Positions 1 through 7,063 are shown, counted from the first letter of the stretch. The stretch: DNA of 64,000 nucleotides from Methylacidiphilum caldifontis (GCA_945877805.1 CAMCSM010000002.1:2650-66649); one strand, 5' to 3'. A program made the numbers and translations. The notes: generated by a model from the sequence alone, not told the origin.

Positions 1-13
1 AATTGATCTATTC

Positions 14-643
14 ATGGTTTCTATTCCATGTCCCTCATGTGGTGCGCAGGTAAAGCTTCAGAGCAATCTTTCGGTTTTTGCTGTCTGTTCCTATTGCCAG
101 TCCTCGTTAGTTCGCAACGATCTCGACATTGAGAGTCTCGGTAAAATGAGTTTGCCGTTGAACGACGTGAGTCCTCTGCAGTTAGGAACCGAAGGAGTTT
201 ATCAAGGAAAACATTTCACCTTGATTGGTCGCGTCAAAAAAAAATGGAGCGATGGTTATTGGAATGAGTGGTATGCTTGGTTTGACTCAGGGGAAGCAGG
301 ATGGATTGCTGAGGCTCAAGGTTTCTATTCCATCTGCTTTGAGGTTGCTCACGAAGATTCCATTTTAAAAATAACGAATCTAAGACCGGGACAGCTTTAT
401 TCATTTTTGGAGATCGACTTTTACGTTGCCGACATCAAGAAAAATCATATTGAGTTTGCTGAGGGGGAGCTTCCGTATGTCGGACGAGCTGGAGTCGATT
501 CTGTTAGTATTGATTTGAATGCCGATGTAAATCAATTTGCTTGTATTGATCAGTCTGAAGCCAAAACCGTCTTTTATCGCGGTTTTTATCTGACATTCCC
601 AGAGTTTAAGTTTCAACGTCTTCGCGAAATCGAGGGATGGTAA
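14..643 (+). CDS. DUF4178-like protein with N-terminal zinc ribbon
   Basis: ATG ORF. It has a four-Cys ribbon (CPSC...CSYC). The core GKHFTLIGRVKKKWSDGYWNEWYAWFDSGEAGWI matches my recollection of the DUF4178 signature. Only a 3-nt gap separates it from the next gene. Confidence 0.65.
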   Translation: MVSIPCPSCGAQVKLQSNLSVFAVCSYCQSSLVRNDLDIESLGKMSLPLNDVSPLQLGTEGVYQGKHFTLIGRVKKKWSDGYWNEWYAWFDSGEAGWIAEAQGFYSICFEVAHEDSILKITNLRPGQLYSFLEIDFYVADIKKNHIEFAEGELPYVGRAGVDSVSIDLNADVNQFACIDQSEAKTVFYRGFYLTFPEFKFQRLREIEGW

Positions 644-646
644 GTT

Positions 647-1981
647 ATGGCAGCAGGAAAACTTCTATCCAATTTTCAATGCCCGAATTGCGGTTCTGCG
701 GTCTCTTTGAGAGCGACAGGGATATCCCTCTCCGTTTCATGTAAAAACTGTCGTTCAATCATCGGAGTTGAAAATGAAAATTATAAAATCCTGAGCCAGT
801 TTGAAGCTTCAAAAACCGTCACACCTCTTATTCCTATAGGTACTCGAGGGGAAATTGAAAGCATTCTATTTGAGGTGATCGGATTTTTGGAGAGAACCGA
901 TCATCTCGGTTATCATCCCTGGCGAGAATATCTTCTTTTTAATCCCTATCACGGGTTCCGCTGGTTAGTCGAGGCTAAGGGGCACTGGTCATATGTGACA
1001 ATGATCAAGAAAACTGTTTTTCAGAAGAATTCTAGTGGTGAAATTGATTATCAAGGTCGCTCCTATTCATTATTTGATGAGGGGTCGGCAAAAGTTCGCT
1101 ATGTTTGGGGGGAATTCTATTGGAGAATTAAGAGAAATCAGGAGCTCGTCACAAAGGATTATGTTTCTCCTCCTTACATGCTTTCACTCGAACAAGAAAA
1201 TAGTGAGATTGTCTGGTCTCAAGCAATTTATCAAAAAGCTGAATTCATTCAAAAGACATTTAACATTCAACAAGTGATGCCGTATTCTATTGGGATTGCC
1301 CCTCATCAGCCCTGTTTTTGGGGGACGGTTTGGGATGAGGTCAAATGGGTCTCACTCTGTTTTTTGATTGTTTTAACTCTCATTCACTGTTTTTTAAATT
1401 CTCTCAATACTCAAAGCCTCTCTCATACTCAATCAGCGACTTATATCGCTCTTCCGAAAGGGGCCGTTCCTTCAAAGGGGGCCTTCGGGATTCAGCCCAT
1501 AAGAGAAAAGGATGTGTTAAATTCTGAAATTGAGACCCCAACCTTCGAGTTAAAAAATAATTTTACGGGCTTAGAAGTTGGACTTTGGGCCGATATCTCC
1601 AACGCTTGGGTCGCCTCAACTTTTGAGCTGGTTAACTGTGATACTGACGAAACAATTCCTCTTGAATCAGAAGTGGCTAATTATAACGGTTACGACAGTG
1701 ATGGCTATTGGTCAGAGGGCAGCAATCGAGTCTCTAATACCATCTCTTCGGTTCCTAAAGGCAGGTATTTTCTTCGTGCGGATATTGACGCAGATCCGGC
1801 TTTAAAGAAATTTGATTACCAAATTATGATCAAAGATGGCATTATTCCTCTTTTTAATCTCATTCTTGCGCTTTTTCTCGTTCTTTGTATTCCGATTTTT
1901 GCTTATTGGAGAAAATGGTCTTTTGAAGTGGAACGTTGGTCAGAAAGCGATTACTCTCCCTTCTCAACTGGAGAAGATTAA
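647..1981 (+). CDS. DUF4178-like protein, zinc-ribbon N-terminus, C-terminal membrane segments
   Basis: CPNCGS...CKNC ribbon. The DUF4178-like core is ILFEVIGFLERTDHLGYHPWREYLLFNPYHGFRWLVEAKGHW. Hydrophobic helices WVSLCFLIVLTLIHCFL and IIPLFNLILALFLVLCIPIFAYW. Confidence 0.65.
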   Translation: MAAGKLLSNFQCPNCGSAVSLRATGISLSVSCKNCRSIIGVENENYKILSQFEASKTVTPLIPIGTRGEIESILFEVIGFLERTDHLGYHPWREYLLFNPYHGFRWLVEAKGHWSYVTMIKKTVFQKNSSGEIDYQGRSYSLFDEGSAKVRYVWGEFYWRIKRNQELVTKDYVSPPYMLSLEQENSEIVWSQAIYQKAEFIQKTFNIQQVMPYSIGIAPHQPCFWGTVWDEVKWVSLCFLIVLTLIHCFLNSLNTQSLSHTQSATYIALPKGAVPSKGAFGIQPIREKDVLNSEIETPTFELKNNFTGLEVGLWADISNAWVASTFELVNCDTDETIPLESEVANYNGYDSDGYWSEGSNRVSNTISSVPKGRYFLRADIDADPALKKFDYQIMIKDGIIPLFNLILALFLVLCIPIFAYWRKWSFEVERWSESDYSPFSTGED

Positions 1982-1983
1982 CA

Positions 1984-2118
1984 ATGAAGACCTATATTGC
2001 CTACTGTTTGCTCATCAGCTTTGGACTGTGGTATATCGATAGCCACGGTGTTAATTTTTTATCCTCAAATTCAGCGGCGAAGCGCGGCATGAATCAACCT
2101 CAACCTCACCACAAATAA
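1984..2118 (+). CDS. small single-TM protein (hypothetical)
   Basis: An internal ATG of the 1936..2118 ORF lies 2 nt after the preceding TAA stop. Product is MKTYIAYCLLISFGLWYI... with one hydrophobic helix and a basic, His-containing tail. Support is operon packing only. Confidence 0.3.
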   Translation: MKTYIAYCLLISFGLWYIDSHGVNFLSSNSAAKRGMNQPQPHHK

Positions 2119-2129
2119 AAAGGGCCCTT

Positions 2130-2348
2130 ATGGAATCATTCTTCACACTCAAAACAATCGGTGCATCGATCTTTTATTCCGTTCTTGGAATTGGGATTTT
2201 TATCCTCGGATTTATCGGGTTTGATAAATTCACCCCTTACAATCTTTGGAAAGAGATCGTGGAAGAAAAAAACATTGCTCTCGCCATTATTGTTGGGGCG
2301 GTTGCTATTGGAATCTCCTTGATTATCTCTTCGGCTATTCACGGTTAA
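2130..2348 (+). CDS. DUF350 (YjfL-like) small membrane protein
   Basis: 72 aa with two or three TM helices. FILGFIGFDKFTPYNLWKEIVEEKNIALAIIVGAVAIGISLII is typical of DUF350. Confidence 0.7.
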   Translation: MESFFTLKTIGASIFYSVLGIGIFILGFIGFDKFTPYNLWKEIVEEKNIALAIIVGAVAIGISLIISSAIHG

Positions 2349-2355
2349 TTTTTTC

Positions 2356-3852
2356 ATGCAATTCTTACTTTTGGCCTCGGCCTTTGTCGTCGCCACATGT
2401 GGTCTGATTTACGAGCTGATCGCAGGAACTCTTGCGAGCTATCTTCTCGGTGACTCGGTGACGCAGTTTTCTACGATTATCGGGGTTTACCTCTTTTCAA
2501 TGGGAATCGGAGCCTATCTCTCTCGTTTCTTTAATCGAAATTTGATACGTGTTTTTATTCAGGTTGAGTTTCTAATCGGTATCATTGGTGGATCTCTCGG
2601 AGCGGTCCTTTTTCTTCTTTTTCCATGGATCGAACATTTTAGGGTAGCCCTTTATGCCTTGGTCTCTATTGTCGGAATTTTTGTCGGGCTTGAGATCCCT
2701 CTGCTTTTGAGAATTCTTCAAGATCGTTTTGAGTTCAAAGAATTAGTTTCAAAGGTTTTAACCTTCGACTATATCGGAGCTCTCGTTGCCTCACTTCTTT
2801 TTCCATTAGTTCTTGTTCCTCAAATCGGGCTTATTCGCACGGGGTTTCTTTTTGGAGCTTTCAATGTTTTCGTTGCTCTTCTTAGTCTTTATATTTTTAA
2901 AAAAGAATTAAAGTGGGTCGTCTCGCTTAAGGTCACCGGATTTTTCTGTCTTACGGCTCTCATTGCAGGTTTTTTTCTTTCTGAAAAAATTACCTCTTAC
3001 GCTGAGCAATCGCAGTATCCAAGTCGCATCATCTATTCAAAATCGACTCCTTATCAGAGAATTGTCGTGACTGAAAATCATCAGGATTACCGGCTCTTTC
3101 TGAATAGCAATCTTCAGTTTAGTTCCAAAGATGAATATCGCTATCATGAAGCGCTTGTTCACCCTGCTGTCTCGGGGGTAAAATCACCTTGCCATGCTCT
3201 TGTGCTGGGAGGAGGGGATGGAATGGCGGTTCGCGAGCTCTTAAAATGGGAGTCTATTGAGAAAATTACTTTGGTTGATCTTGATCCAGAAATGACACAA
3301 CTTTTTTCAAGTAAAAATATCCTTAGAGAGCTCAATCAAAACGCTCTCTTGTCCCCGAAACTTCAAATCATCAACGCAGATGCCTTCACTTGGCTTAAAT
3401 CGAATCAAAGCTCGTTTGATATTGTCGTTCTCGATTTTCCAGACCCTTCGAATTATTCGTTGAGCAAGCTTTTTACAACGTCGTTTTTTAAAATTCTTTA
3501 TGAACGGCTTACTCCAGGAGGGGCGATAGCGATCCAATGTACCTCTCCTCTCGTTGCGCGAAAATCGTTCTGGTGCATTGATGCGACACTTAAAAGCGTG
3601 GGATTTATGACGACTCCCTATCACGCTTATGTTCCCTCCTTTGGGGAATGGGGATTCATCATCGCTTCTCATCAGCCCTTTCAGATCGTTAAACCGTTTT
3701 GTCCCAATCTTAGATTCGTTTCAGAAAAGTCATTTGCTTCGATGCTTCAATTTCCTGATGATATGAGCTCTATTCCTGTTAAAATAAACACGCTTAACAA
3801 TCATTGCTTAGTTCAGTATTTCGAAAGCGAGTGGTCGGAGTATTCACACTGA
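2356..3852 (+). CDS. speE: membrane-fused polyamine aminopropyltransferase (spermidine synthase-like)
   Basis: About 220 N-terminal residues of TM helices, followed by a SpeE fold with the motifs LVLGGGDGMAVRELLKW, LVDLDPEM and VLDFPDPSN. Confidence 0.85.
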   Translation: MQFLLLASAFVVATCGLIYELIAGTLASYLLGDSVTQFSTIIGVYLFSMGIGAYLSRFFNRNLIRVFIQVEFLIGIIGGSLGAVLFLLFPWIEHFRVALYALVSIVGIFVGLEIPLLLRILQDRFEFKELVSKVLTFDYIGALVASLLFPLVLVPQIGLIRTGFLFGAFNVFVALLSLYIFKKELKWVVSLKVTGFFCLTALIAGFFLSEKITSYAEQSQYPSRIIYSKSTPYQRIVVTENHQDYRLFLNSNLQFSSKDEYRYHEALVHPAVSGVKSPCHALVLGGGDGMAVRELLKWESIEKITLVDLDPEMTQLFSSKNILRELNQNALLSPKLQIINADAFTWLKSNQSSFDIVVLDFPDPSNYSLSKLFTTSFFKILYERLTPGGAIAIQCTSPLVARKSFWCIDATLKSVGFMTTPYHAYVPSFGEWGFIIASHQPFQIVKPFCPNLRFVSEKSFASMLQFPDDMSSIPVKINTLNNHCLVQYFESEWSEYSH

Positions 3853-3854
3853 AT

Positions 3855-5492
3855 ATGAATTCCTTTTTTTCGCGCAGGAGTTTTTTGAAGTTAGGGGCCG
3901 CTGGCATGGCCTCCTCCGCATGGGGAGGATGTTTCTCAAGTCCGAAGCCTATTCCTGGGAAAATTTTAGGAGCCTCGGTTAAAGTGGGGCATCTACTCCG
4001 CTCCGGTTCGTTTCCCATTCCGGAAGAGATTGGAGAAAAATCAGTGGTCATTGTTGGGGGTGGAATCGCGGGATTAAGTGCCGGATGGAAACTGCAAAAA
4101 GCTGGCTTTACCGATTTCACTCTTTTAGAGCTTGAAAACGAAGTGGGAGGGAATTCTCAATCGGGAGGAAACGACTATTCCGCTTATCCTTGGGGAGCCC
4201 ATTATCTCCCGATTCCAAATCCAGAATCTGCTTATGTTCGGGAGTTGCTTGAGGATCTTCATTTAATCGAAGGTTATGATTCAAATCATCTGCCGATTTA
4301 TGACGAGTACTCCCTTTGTCATCCTCCTCAAGATCGACTCTTTATCCATGGGCGTTGGCAGGATGGAATTGAGCCGAAGTCCTCACTTAGCGCAGAGGAT
4401 AAGCTTCAGTTTGAGCGGTTTTGGAAAATCGTAGACCGATTTAAGAAAGCAAAAGGATCGGATGGAAAGCGTGCTTTTGCGATTCCTCTTGTCCTGAGCT
4501 CCCGTGATCAACGGTTCTTAGCTCTCGATAAAATGAGCGCAGCACAGTTTTTAAGTGCCGAGCAGCTAAACTCTAAATATCTGATCTGGTATTTAAATTA
4601 TTGTTGCAAAGATGATTATGGTGCGACGATTGAAACAGTTTCCGCATGGGCCGCGATTCATTATTTTGCATCGAGAATCGGAGTAGGAGCTAATGCAGGG
4701 CCACAATCAGTGCTTACGTGGCCTGAGGGAAACGGACATCTTGTTGAGGCGTTGCGCGCAAAAATATCCCCCCATATTCATACCGGATCACTCGTCTATT
4801 CGATTGACTCACAACCGGATTTTTCACACGTCGACTTCTTCGATCTTGCTACGCAAAGAAGCTTTCGCATCCGAGCCCAAAATGTGATCTTTGCCGCACC
4901 CCGATTTATCGCCCAACAGACGATTCCAAAACTCCCTCGTATTCAAGGAGGAAAATATAGTCCGTGGATGATCGCTAACATTACCCTCAAGCAGCTTCCA
5001 GCGGAGATCATGGACTCTTTTTCTTGGGATAATGTCATTTATGAGAGTGAATCCCTCGGTTACGTCGTTGCCACCCATCAGCGTTTGGATCGTCTGCTTC
5101 GAGGAACCGTTCTGACTTACTATTGCCCCCTTGTAGATCCTGATATTTCTAAAAGCCGTAAAATGTTATTGGAACGAACCCATGAAGAGTGGGTCGACCT
5201 CATTCTGAAAGATCTTCAACGACCGCATCCTTCCATACGTCAATACATTGAAAATATCGATCTATGGCGTTGGGGGCATGGGATGATTATTCCAACTCCG
5301 GGTTATATCTGGGGAGAAACACAACAAGATCGACTTCGAACTTTTCAAAAAATACATTTTGCTCACTCAGATATGAGTGGGATCTCTATTTTTGAAGAGG
5401 CTCAATATCACGGAGTCCAAGCTGCCGAATCGATTCTACGAAACTTAAAAACAACTCATCACACACAGAACGCATATGAATTTCCCATTTAA
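3855..5492 (+). CDS. Tat-signal FAD-dependent amine oxidase-like oxidoreductase
   Basis: I chose the internal ATG that gives MNSFFSRRSFLKLGAAG (twin-arginine motif), followed by AWGGC. Dinucleotide-binding motif VVIVGGGIAGLSAG. The C-terminal FAHSDMSG..FEEAQYHG is typical of the flavin amine oxidase/NAD(P)-binding family. Confidence 0.75.
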   Translation: MNSFFSRRSFLKLGAAGMASSAWGGCFSSPKPIPGKILGASVKVGHLLRSGSFPIPEEIGEKSVVIVGGGIAGLSAGWKLQKAGFTDFTLLELENEVGGNSQSGGNDYSAYPWGAHYLPIPNPESAYVRELLEDLHLIEGYDSNHLPIYDEYSLCHPPQDRLFIHGRWQDGIEPKSSLSAEDKLQFERFWKIVDRFKKAKGSDGKRAFAIPLVLSSRDQRFLALDKMSAAQFLSAEQLNSKYLIWYLNYCCKDDYGATIETVSAWAAIHYFASRIGVGANAGPQSVLTWPEGNGHLVEALRAKISPHIHTGSLVYSIDSQPDFSHVDFFDLATQRSFRIRAQNVIFAAPRFIAQQTIPKLPRIQGGKYSPWMIANITLKQLPAEIMDSFSWDNVIYESESLGYVVATHQRLDRLLRGTVLTYYCPLVDPDISKSRKMLLERTHEEWVDLILKDLQRPHPSIRQYIENIDLWRWGHGMIIPTPGYIWGETQQDRLRTFQKIHFAHSDMSGISIFEEAQYHGVQAAESILRNLKTTHHTQNAYEFPI

Positions 5493-5859
5493 AGGGCGAC
5501 ATCTTCTCGTTACTTTTTACGACTGTAGTCTCTCCGCGCTCCTTGATGTCGAAACCCTTCAGAAACAACTCGAATTTTCGGCAAAGTGCGCAGGAGCCAA
5601 TCAGCTCGATCTAGCAATTCATCCTTTTCCAAATGGAGGATATACCTCTGTCCTCCTTCTTTCAGAAAGTCATGTGAGTATTCATACCTATCCCGAGCAT
5701 CGGTCTTGCTTTATGGACTTCTTTACGTGTGGGGAAAATGCCGATGGATCCCTTTTTTTTAAATTGATGCACGATTATTTAAAGCCAGAAAAAGTCGATC
5801 AAATGACAATACAACGGGGTTCTGGTTCCTTCCCGTTTGAAGGGGCATTGGATTTTTAG
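5476..5859 (+). CDS. speD: S-adenosylmethionine decarboxylase proenzyme (pyruvoyl, small bacterial class)
   Basis: GRHLLVTFYDC and LLLSESHVSIHTYPE (Glu-Ser self-cleavage site motif). It overlaps the upstream gene by 17 nt. Confidence 0.85.
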   Translation: MNFPFKGRHLLVTFYDCSLSALLDVETLQKQLEFSAKCAGANQLDLAIHPFPNGGYTSVLLLSESHVSIHTYPEHRSCFMDFFTCGENADGSLFFKLMHDYLKPEKVDQMTIQRGSGSFPFEGALDF

Positions 5860-5860
5860 G

Positions 5861-5930
5861 TTTAAATGGATTTAGGCTATCCAGCTTTCCAGCTTTCCAG
5901 CTTTTCAGCTAATGGGCTAATGGGCTATCC
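5861..5930 (+). repeat. intergenic repeat element: 22-nt head, octamer tandem repeats, GGCTATCC ends
   Basis: Head tttaaatggatttaggctatcc, then (ccagcttt)x3 at 5881-5904 and (aatgggct)x2 at 5911-5926, bounded by ggctatcc at 5875-5882 and 5923-5930. The head recurs 21/22 in reverse complement at 21791-21812. Confidence 0.6.
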
Positions 5931-6030
5931 AAAATGAATTATTAAAACAGTTAATATAATATGTGTTATCAATTAATTACTAATTATCGCATATTATTTT
6001 ACTTTTTAAATTTTAGAGTAGCTTCGTTAG

Positions 6031-6324
6031 ATGGCAATGTTTTTGGAGGATTATCTAAAATTAATGGGTCAACGATTTAAGGAGCTTCGGCTCGAGCGTG
6101 GCTATACGCAGCAAGAGATGTGCAAGAGAGCTGGAATTAAATTTGCGACGTACCAGATTTTTGAAAGAACCGGCAAAATATCGTTGGGGCGCTTTTATAA
6201 AATCGCCTCCGTGATTCATCGACAACAGGAATTGGAGGAGTTATTTAAACCGCTTCCGATTCAGTCTATTGCTCAATTAGTGGAGGTCAGACAGCGGCAA
6301 AGAGGACGTAGGAGGGTCAAATGA
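6031..6324 (+). CDS. XRE-family HTH antitoxin (HipB-like)
   Basis: The HTH is LRLERGYTQQEMCKRAGIKFATYQIFERTG. Its stop overlaps the start of the HipA-like remnant by 4 nt. Confidence 0.65.
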   Translation: MAMFLEDYLKLMGQRFKELRLERGYTQQEMCKRAGIKFATYQIFERTGKISLGRFYKIASVIHRQQELEELFKPLPIQSIAQLVEVRQRQRGRRRVK

Positions 6325-6880
6325 TTATTGAAGTCAGGATGGGAGAAAAAACAGTCGGACGATTGGCAGAGGATCTTCAGACAGGGCAGATTTATTTTCA
6401 ATATGAAAATGAATGGATGCAGAGCGGCGTCAATATTTCCCCCTTTCATCTGGAATTTTATACGATTGCACAAAGACATCTGAACGAAAAGTTTCATGGA
6501 TTACACGGGGTATTTGCGAATCAGCAAAGAAGGAACGAGTCCTTTTCGGAATAAAAAGATTTGATCGTCACGAGGGAAAAAAGATTCATATGCACTCTCT
6601 TTCCGGACTATTGCATATCAGCCATCAGGAGTTATCGATTTCCTACGAGGATTTTATTTTAAGAGGGGTGGAGCTGACGGAAAATCATGAAACCGCAAAA
6701 GAAATTTTCAGACGGTGTGTATTTAACAGAATTGTCGGAAATTGTGATGATCACGCAAAAAATTTCGCATTCCTTCTCAAAGGGAAAGAGTGGATTCTCT
6801 CACCCTCCATCTCTTGTGCTCCATGTCCAGTTTAGGGCGAATACCGATGGCTTGAAGCTGCTTAATAAAAGCAAGTTTAA
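6321..6880 (+). pseudogene. hipA-like kinase toxin remnant (internally deleted, frameshifted)
   Basis: Frame 1 gives a HipA N-terminal-like sequence, MIIEVRMGEKTVGRLAED..IYFQYENEWMQSGVNISPF. A second frame gives RFDRHEGKKIHMH...FNRIVGNCDDHAKNFAFLLKGKEWILSP (HipA C-terminal catalytic motif). A further frameshift follows ILSP. The total is far shorter than intact HipA. Confidence 0.6.
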
Positions 6881-6895
6881 AAAAATTGCTCTTAT

Positions 6896-6924
6896 TTGAC
6901 AATATCATTGGCAAGCGTTATTTT
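6896..6924 (+). promoter_or_regulatory. candidate sigma70-type promoter upstream of actA
   Basis: TTGACA at 6896-6901, a 17-nt spacer, then TATTTT at 6919-6924. It lies about 140 nt upstream of the actA start. Confidence 0.3.
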
Positions 6925-7063
6925 GTTATTTTTTAGCGTATTTTTGTGGAAAAAAGGTTGCCAGAATCGATTGTGTTGCATAAACAAAAAGGGCTCATGA
7001 GTTATTCGCAATATCAAATTTCGTATTCCTTCATCGGAAAAGCTTTCATCAAGGGGTTGCTCC

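Follow-up and report, generated by a model that had tools for sequence, protein, structure and literature searches.

The subject of this report is a 64,000-nucleotide stretch of the Methylacidiphilum caldifontis genome (GCA_945877805.1, CAMCSM010000002.1:2650-66649; G000:C2:2650-66649 in our numbering), hereafter called the window, and in particular the plus-strand region between window positions 14 and 5859. Judged from its sequence, this region is, together with a gene directly upstream, one intact eight-gene operon (g0 to g7). We consider it reasonably probable that the operon specifies an envelope module in which decarboxylated S-adenosylmethionine (dcAdoMet), made in the cytoplasm, would be used by a membrane-bound, spermidine synthase (SpdSyn)-like aminopropyltransferase (g5) on an acceptor other than putrescine, with the outer membrane face as the probable site, after which a periplasmic flavoenzyme (g6) would act, with an SPFH protein (g0), a DUF4178 pair (g1 and g2), and a DUF350 protein (g4) as scaffold or sensor. 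The outline of this scheme, in which dcAdoMet is made, aminopropyl groups are transferred at the membrane, and an amine is oxidized outside the cytoplasm, had been put forward in a first-pass annotation of the window and is supported here at the level of predicted function, the twin-arginine translocation (Tat) signal of g6 being conserved.

By its gene content, the operon is of a type that has already been published, namely, polyamine-linked envelope operons in their PspA-free band-7/SHOCT variant, since g0 encodes an SPFH-SHOCT protein. Ravi et al. (mSystems, 2024, PMC11237479, section 19) describe operons that combine a SpdSyn carrying seven transmembrane (TM) segments (7TM-SpdSyn) with YjfL (DUF350) and DUF4178, with Shewanella oneidensis SO_3765 as an example, as well as a variant in which a band-7 (SPFH) protein with a C-terminal SHOCT domain is found in place of the CesT/Tir-PspA dyad and in which AdoMet decarboxylase (AdoMetDC) and a polyamine oxidase are present. 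The same paper ties such operons to PspA/SPFH envelope stress systems and cites Li et al. (2019) for the AdoMetDC linkage. All of the components of this variant (7TM-SpdSyn, DUF350, DUF4178, AdoMetDC, amine oxidase, and band-7/SHOCT) are encoded by the operon studied here and, as in the Shewanella string given as LipoSIG+Ctha_1186 -> YjfL, a small gene directly precedes that for DUF350. Unlike the operons of Ravi et al., however, which have a single or a fused DUF4178 gene, ours contains DUF4178 as two genes of its own, and, unlike in the classical Psp system, PspA is missing: no match to PspA_IM30 (PF04012) was found in the genome (an assembly of 96% completeness, to which all our statements on absence and single copies refer). 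A microprotein ending in His-Lys, the oxidase as a Tat lipoprotein, and the membrane side of the enzymes, all discussed below, are not discussed in that paper. While we found no chemistry for this gene association in the literature, as the first-pass annotation had supposed, the association itself was thus not new (Ravi et al., 2024; Li et al., 2019).

Seven same-strand open reading frames (ORFs) occupy positions 14 to 5859, with successive gaps of 3, 2, 11, 7, 2, and -17 nt, the last value reflecting a 17-nt overlap between g6 and g7; the tight packing noted earlier (-17 to +11 nt) is borne out by these coordinates. The original list of seven to eight genes holds for these seven, but g0 had been missed: this plus-strand gene (G000:C2:1662-2651) precedes the window, with the last two bases of its stop codon at window positions 1 and 2, 11 nt before g1. 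Additionally, the starts of g3 and g6 were set to 1984 and 3855, respectively, the g6 start being the ATG ahead of SRRSFLK. Domain calls were made with Pfam and NCBIfam profiles at their curated cut-offs, above which all of the proposed assignments (DUF4178, DUF350, Spermine_synth, Amino_oxidase, and AdoMet_dc) scored.

Conservation of the arrangement was surveyed by alignment to g5 in one genome per species, which returned matches in at least 598 species, cultivated ones such as Labrys okinawensis DSM 18385, Pedobacter ureilyticus, and Dyadobacter endophyticus among them. The 80 best loci were annotated with hidden Markov models made from the window and six further neighborhoods, and gene counts were taken from the 46 of these 80 that had at least 4.5 kb of flanking sequence on either side of g5; the 80 loci being those nearest to the query, the counts describe the g5 subfamily rather than all membrane SpdSyn fusions. 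The six neighborhoods (Bdellovibrio-like, Nitrospiraceae, Obscuribacterales, Opitutaceae, Deltaproteobacteria, and GCA_003131385.1) share the same order, which can be written as (Band_7_1-SHOCT)/DUF4178, twice or fused/ORF of about 45 amino acids (aa)/DUF350/498-aa Spermine_synth/amine oxidase/(membrane protein of about 370 aa)/(AdoMet_dc). Among the 46 loci, g6 follows g5 in 45, g2 is present in 42, DUF350 adjoins g5 in 38, g7 is present in 31, g1 or a g1+g2 fusion is found in 29, and a g0-type gene opens the operon in 17. The operon genes co-occur in hundreds of species and keep their order across more than 10 phyla, and the seven genes first noted are clearly not confined to a single genome.

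The supply of dcAdoMet is assigned to g7 (5476 to 5859), a 127-aa class 1b pyruvoyl S-adenosylmethionine decarboxylase proenzyme, which matches AdoMet_dc (96.8 bits) and TIGR03330 (95.6 bits; cut-off, 75.65). In class 1b AdoMetDC, the pyruvoyl group is generated at a Glu-Ser-His motif, and this self-cleavage motif is intact in g7 (E64-S65-H66), in keeping with the earlier call of a pyruvoyl AdoMet decarboxylase. On the basis of its family membership and this intact site, g7 would act as a cytoplasmic SpeD that converts S-adenosylmethionine into dcAdoMet. Since no signal peptide was found in g7, either orientation of g5 requires that one cationic intermediate or more pass through the membrane. 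In one of the other loci (L009), the oxidase and SpeD seemed to be fused, but the ORF in question merely runs through masked N's and has no bearing on topology.

The aminopropyltransferase itself, g5 (2356 to 3852; 498 aa), is made up of a 7-TM domain (residues 2 to 207) and a SpdSyn-like domain (residues 224 to 440) and matches Spermine_synth (123 bits) and NCBIfam PRK03612 (661 bits; cut-off, 472). Models of g5 and g2 were made with AlphaFold2 (AF2) and compared with solved structures using Foldseek; that of g5 (predicted local distance difference test [pLDDT] score, 89.6) contains seven TM helices (2-31, 34-58, 63-88, 95-121, 127-157, 159-180, and 188-207), followed by a complete SpdSyn fold, which agrees well with the aminopropyltransferase fused to a large membrane domain that had been described at first. 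Its nearest solved folds are those of thermospermine synthase and the Thermus triamine/agmatine aminopropyltransferase (Foldseek E value, 4e-17; target TM-score, 0.68 to 0.78). Both Thermus thermophilus SpeE (1UIR/3ANX) and the thermospermine synthase of Medicago (6BQ2) share with g5 the fold and the motifs GGG(D/E)G and D-x-x-D-P, and the GGGDG (285 to 289) and D-x-x-D-P aspartates (D360/D363) of g5 align with those of Thermus SpeE. Across 49 g5 orthologues, G285-G289, D308/D310, D355, D360, and D363 are invariant. The TM domain is conserved to the same degree as the catalytic domain, with invariant E20, D33, E113, and D138; neither a profile of 35 such domains nor the single sequence found any relative of it in the PDB or Pfam. 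Unlike the soluble, cytoplasmic SpeE-type enzymes of about 290 to 310 aa, then, g5 carries a fused domain of seven TM helices, has a predicted periplasmic orientation, and stands in another operon context.

As for the acceptor, an E. coli strain deleted for speE was reportedly not complemented by the isolated SpdSyn-like domain of a g5 homologue. A paper (PMC12803844) that cites the work on the AdoMetDC/membrane-SpdSyn/DUF350 cluster of Li et al. (Biochem J 476:2579, 2019) states that bacterial membrane-SpdSyn fusions have no part in making spermidine or spermine. On the basis of these literature experiments on homologues, g5 would hand the aminopropyl group to some molecule that is not free putrescine. 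The present operon resembles the cluster of Li et al. in its class 1b AdoMetDC, its fusion of an N-terminal membrane domain to a C-terminal SpdSyn-like domain, and its DUF350 gene, but differs from it in the membrane domain, which in that cluster is assigned to the major facilitator superfamily (MFS) class. Although g5 does match the NCBIfam "fused MFS/spermidine synthase" model (MFS_SpdSyn; 48 bits; cut-off, 40), only this combined model scores, no MFS similarity was found in Pfam or the PDB, and the AF2 model has seven TM helices; at the sequence level, an MFS assignment thus lacks support.

An alternative explanation would be that g7 and g5 are just the ordinary SpeD/SpeE pair of the organism, with unrelated, co-transcribed envelope genes as neighbors. 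The genome does contain g5 as the single detected aminopropyltransferase and g7 as the single detected AdoMetDC, the catalytic motifs of g5 are intact, and putrescine is probably available, since a SpeA-like arginine decarboxylase (647 aa) and an agmatine deiminase are encoded elsewhere. However, chance adjacency does not explain why the neighbors keep their order with g5 across more than 10 phyla, and orthologous fusions are reported in PMC12803844 not to act in spermidine or spermine synthesis. Moreover, neither a g2 homologue nor an orthologous g5 was found in any of 40 relatives (3 of the same genus, 1 of the same family, and 36 of the same order), which argues against a housekeeping role in this lineage. 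We therefore give this explanation little credence.

The fate of the product is where g6 (3855 to 5492; 545 aa), a Tat-signal protein of the flavin amine-oxidase superfamily, would come in. Its N-terminus (MNSFFSRRSFLKLGAAGMASSAWGGC) includes a Tat/lipobox segment (SRRSFLKLGAAGMASSAWGGC) with twin arginines, a hydrophobic region, and a lipobox cysteine (Cys26). The RR motif is found in 53 of 72 g6 orthologues, with RK or KR in most of the others, and a lipobox-like cysteine follows in most. Because both features are kept in orthologues, g6 is very probably a Tat-exported lipoprotein, with Cys26 as its probable lipid anchor; the twin-arginine-exported flavin amine oxidase-like enzyme of the first-pass annotation can be retained, with the refinement that the conserved signal is usually accompanied by a lipobox cysteine. 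The protein matches Amino_oxidase over residues 71 to 528 (40.4 bits; cut-off, 19.8) and NAD_binding_8 (46.3 bits), while its best NCBIfam match, PigB (68 bits), falls far under the cut-off of 850. From this well-supported periplasmic location, g6 would oxidize the aminopropylated product or its remnant. Orthologues of g6 also have a conserved I/L-x-G-A-S-x-x-x-G-H-x-L-R motif between the signal peptide and the GxGxxG of the flavin adenine dinucleotide (FAD) site (within window positions 3855 to 4060), of which we found no description.

The orientation of g5 was assessed from the charges of its loops. Averaged over the 49 orthologues, loops 2-3, 4-5, and 6-7 carry 9.3 lysines plus arginines, versus 2.1 on loops 1-2, 3-4, and 5-6. 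With seven TM helices, the positive-inside rule then places the N-terminus in the cytoplasm and the SpdSyn domain outside, which makes this domain probably extracytoplasmic. In such an arrangement, the catalytic domain would work at the periplasmic surface of the inner membrane, and the acidic, highly conserved 7-TM domain may carry dcAdoMet across; were the topology reversed, the 7-TM domain would carry the cationic product instead. The reversed orientation is part of another conceivable, if doubtful, scheme, in which a cytoplasmic SpdSyn domain makes an unusual polyamine or other aminopropylated small molecule that is exported by the 7-TM domain and trimmed or recycled by the periplasmic oxidase. 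To our knowledge, all characterized aminopropyltransferases are cytoplasmic, and dcAdoMet is made in the cytoplasm, g7 lacking a signal peptide; further, the invariant acidic residues of the TM domain would suit a cationic cargo, and, with the oxidase outside, a membrane crossing is needed in any model. On the other hand, a cytoplasmic C-terminal domain would put the three loops rich in lysine and arginine in the periplasm, contrary to the positive-inside rule, and neither the statement on spermidine and spermine synthesis quoted from PMC12803844 (after Li et al., 2019) nor the reported lack of speE complementation by a homologue's isolated domain favors it. The outcome of this scheme would be surface polyamines that stabilize the envelope, following a logic like that of speD2/speE2 in Pseudomonas aeruginosa, which are under PmrAB control (Johnson et al., 2012, as cited in PMC11107197). 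A distant homologue of g5 in a relative of the same order (L092; G023:C23:17382-19912) has the 7-TM domain twice (aligned to query residues 5 to 182 and 6 to 185) and a single SpdSyn-like domain, which suggests a 14-TM inverted-repeat form, in which the catalytic domain would sit on the opposite side of the membrane.

Returning to the proposed module with g5 active at the outer face, the microprotein g3 (1984 to 2118) deserves attention. This 44-aa product, with an ATG start, has a TM segment at its N-terminus, followed by a basic tail with PHHK-COOH at the end, and it matches no Pfam family. A small TM ORF is located between the DUF4178 and DUF350 genes in 65 of 75 loci, its product ending in Lys in 62 and in His-Lys in 60; by sequence comparison, g3 is thus a member of a conserved microprotein family with a His-Lys C-terminus. 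We speculate that g3 is the most concrete candidate for an acceptor or cofactor of g5. A more specific version, which we put forward only tentatively and hold to be rather unlikely, has aminopropylation take place outside the cytoplasm: the 7-TM domain would pass dcAdoMet from the cytoplasm to the periplasmic SpdSyn domain, which would modify the epsilon-amine of the C-terminal lysine of g3 (...HHK) or a different amine in the envelope, for instance that of a lipid head group, and g6 would oxidize the adduct. If true, this would be the first periplasmic use of a donor derived from S-adenosylmethionine and a bacterial counterpart of the lysine polyaminopropylation in diatom silaffins.

Several observations weigh against the reading proposed here. 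First, the outward placement of the SpdSyn domain comes from the charge rule only and requires that dcAdoMet cross the membrane, for which we know of no precedent. Second, the orientation of g3 is ambiguous by charge (net +2.1 on the N-terminal flank, +0.9 on the C-terminal flank, and +3.1 over the whole tail), so that its lysine and the enzyme may be on opposite sides of the membrane. Third, the match of g6 to the amine-oxidase superfamily is weak outside the FAD-binding site, and its relatives in the PDB align at the FAD-binding N-terminus only; we have therefore left its substrate class wide. Fourth, the genes for a putrescine route, together with the absence of another SpeE, leave room for ordinary spermidine synthesis by g5. 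Fifth, in a consensus scan, promoter- and terminator-like sites occurred at chance frequency only and are thus uninformative on co-transcription. Finally, for no orthologue did we find a reported product, nor did the literature on DUF4178, DUF350, membrane SpdSyn, and Rv2597-Rv2601 yield later functional work.

The products of the remaining genes, g0, g1, g2, and g4, would serve as a noncatalytic scaffold or sensor, keeping the enzymes within a patch of membrane or gating them there. The 329-aa g0 protein matches Band_7_1 (244.3 bits), Band_7 (53.7 bits), and the C-terminal SHOCT domain (28.0 bits). Between these domains lies a Gly/Ala-rich hydrophobic stretch (AAANPGGLGAIGAGLGAGLAVSQAM) that stays below the Kyte-Doolittle TM threshold used; at this place, two TM segments are given for the variant in PMC11237479. 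Two zinc-ribbon DUF4178 proteins, one of them membrane anchored, had been recognized from the start, and this description stands: g1 (14 to 643; 209 aa; DUF4178, 28.9 bits, with a cut-off of 25) has no predicted TM segment and is a soluble, predicted cytoplasmic protein, whereas g2 (647 to 1981; 444 aa; DUF4178, 72.2 bits) has two TM helices. Both carry a CxxC...CxxC zinc ribbon at the N-terminus, which is kept in 59 homologues. In the AF2 model of g2 (pLDDT score, 85.8), the zinc ribbon and a beta-rich DUF4178 domain are followed by the first TM helix (224-254), a beta-sandwich of about 140 to 145 aa, the second TM helix (402-431), and a conserved tail (RWSxSDYSP); with the zinc ribbon, the DUF4178 domain, and the tail in the cytoplasm, this predicted topology makes the beta-sandwich extracytoplasmic. 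A sequence search of the PDB with g2 gave zero matches and Foldseek returned generic jelly-roll or beta-sandwich folds only (TM-scores of about 0.15 to 0.35), and these searches consequently leave DUF4178 and the periplasmic domain of g2 without a functional lead. Homologues of g2 fall into 1347 clusters. With respect to the pair, natural g1+g2 fusion proteins of 635 aa (e.g., P0025) share 42% identity with g1 in their N-terminal half, and the existence of such Rosetta-stone fusions, seen in many species, suggests that g1 and g2 act together.

The last of these genes, g4 (2130 to 2348), encodes a small membrane protein of 72 aa with a single-repeat DUF350 domain (YjfL family; 54.6 bits). In Solitalea agri (L018:6446-9919), a DUF4178-TM/DUF350 gene pair is tandemly doubled upstream of the membrane SpdSyn gene. 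The combination of a DUF350 protein with a polyamine-type enzyme and a membrane-stress scaffold is also found in the E. coli yjfIJKLMC cluster (the "third group" of Ravi et al., 2024), with the PspA-like YjfJ, the DUF350 protein YjfL, and YjfC, which resembles glutathionylspermidine synthetase. Unlike the operon described here, however, the yjf cluster has an ATP-grasp ligase and no aminopropyltransferase, DUF4178, oxidase, or AdoMetDC, and its scaffold is PspA rather than SPFH.

The window copy by itself adds little beyond confirmation, and the interest lies in the chemistry of the family: in representative genomes of at least about 600 species from more than 10 phyla, an intact aminopropyltransferase and a dedicated dcAdoMet supply lack an assigned product. 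Solving this chemistry would define a new envelope modification or polyamine-derived molecule, along with the first functions for DUF4178 and DUF350. What the window copy does contribute concerns the makeup and the mobility of the module. In 33 of the 46 loci, a ninth gene (gX) follows the oxidase gene, encoding a polytopic membrane protein of about 360 to 380 aa (e.g., L006:13155-14306, L010:6567-7742, and L026:13050-14201) with a conserved QPW...IDV(A/S)HVY(S/A)TLFRTY motif and zero matches in Pfam or the PDB. This gene was found neither in the M. caldifontis assembly, where g6 and g7 overlap, nor in the other Verrucomicrobiota copies, and a module that lacks gX, unlike most copies, can thus stay intact and perhaps also function.

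As to mobility, the operon is flanked on its 5' side by glpX and hisI, about 120 nt away, and on its 3' side by a repeat-rich spacer, a decayed hipBA pair, and the ACIII cluster. In a genome of the same genus (G002), in which HisI and ActA are 96% identical to those of M. caldifontis, the hisI-actA interval (L095:2298-11396, syntenic to window positions 1 to 7063) instead contains a PIN gene and a set of four genes, encoding a 640-aa coiled-coil membrane protein (ZorA), a MotB_plug/OmpA protein (ZorB), an EH_Signature protein, and an SNF2+Mrr protein, which looks like a type I Zorya system. By its content in these genomes, the hisI-actA site is a variable island hotspot. The operon has a G+C content of 42.7%, versus 46.1% for the genome, and falls within the lowest 5% of 7-kb windows. 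A tree of g5 sequences gives the window copy a long branch that lies outside the supported clade formed by the other Verrucomicrobiota copies, its exact position not being fixed. Together with the absence from all 40 relatives, the content of the sister site, the low G+C content, and the tree suggest that the operon was acquired horizontally and entered a variable site, and it is probably an accessory island; the module, then, probably moves horizontally into such chromosomal sites.

The company that the operon keeps at this site might also suggest an anti-phage or conflict system, that is, defense-island cargo acting by envelope change or polyamine chemistry: the sister genome holds the PIN gene and the ZorABCD-like set here, the M. 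caldifontis site has the degraded hipBA pair, and the distribution among relatives is patchy. Yet, when all eight proteins were compared with the PADLOC models, generic Rossmann-fold matches alone came up, for which reason we rejected a defense assignment; in most other genomes, the operon is located among housekeeping genes, and the link made in PMC11237479 is one to PspA/SPFH envelope stress systems. A role in defense accordingly strikes us as highly improbable. In the decayed hipBA pair itself (window positions 6031 to 6880), the HTH_3 antitoxin-like ORF is intact, and behind it come fragments of HipA_C in differing frames. Between it and the operon, right after the speD (g7) stop codon, positions 5861 to 5935 contain tandem repeats (ccagcttt, three times, and then gctaatgg, twice), a tract that may mark the island boundary.

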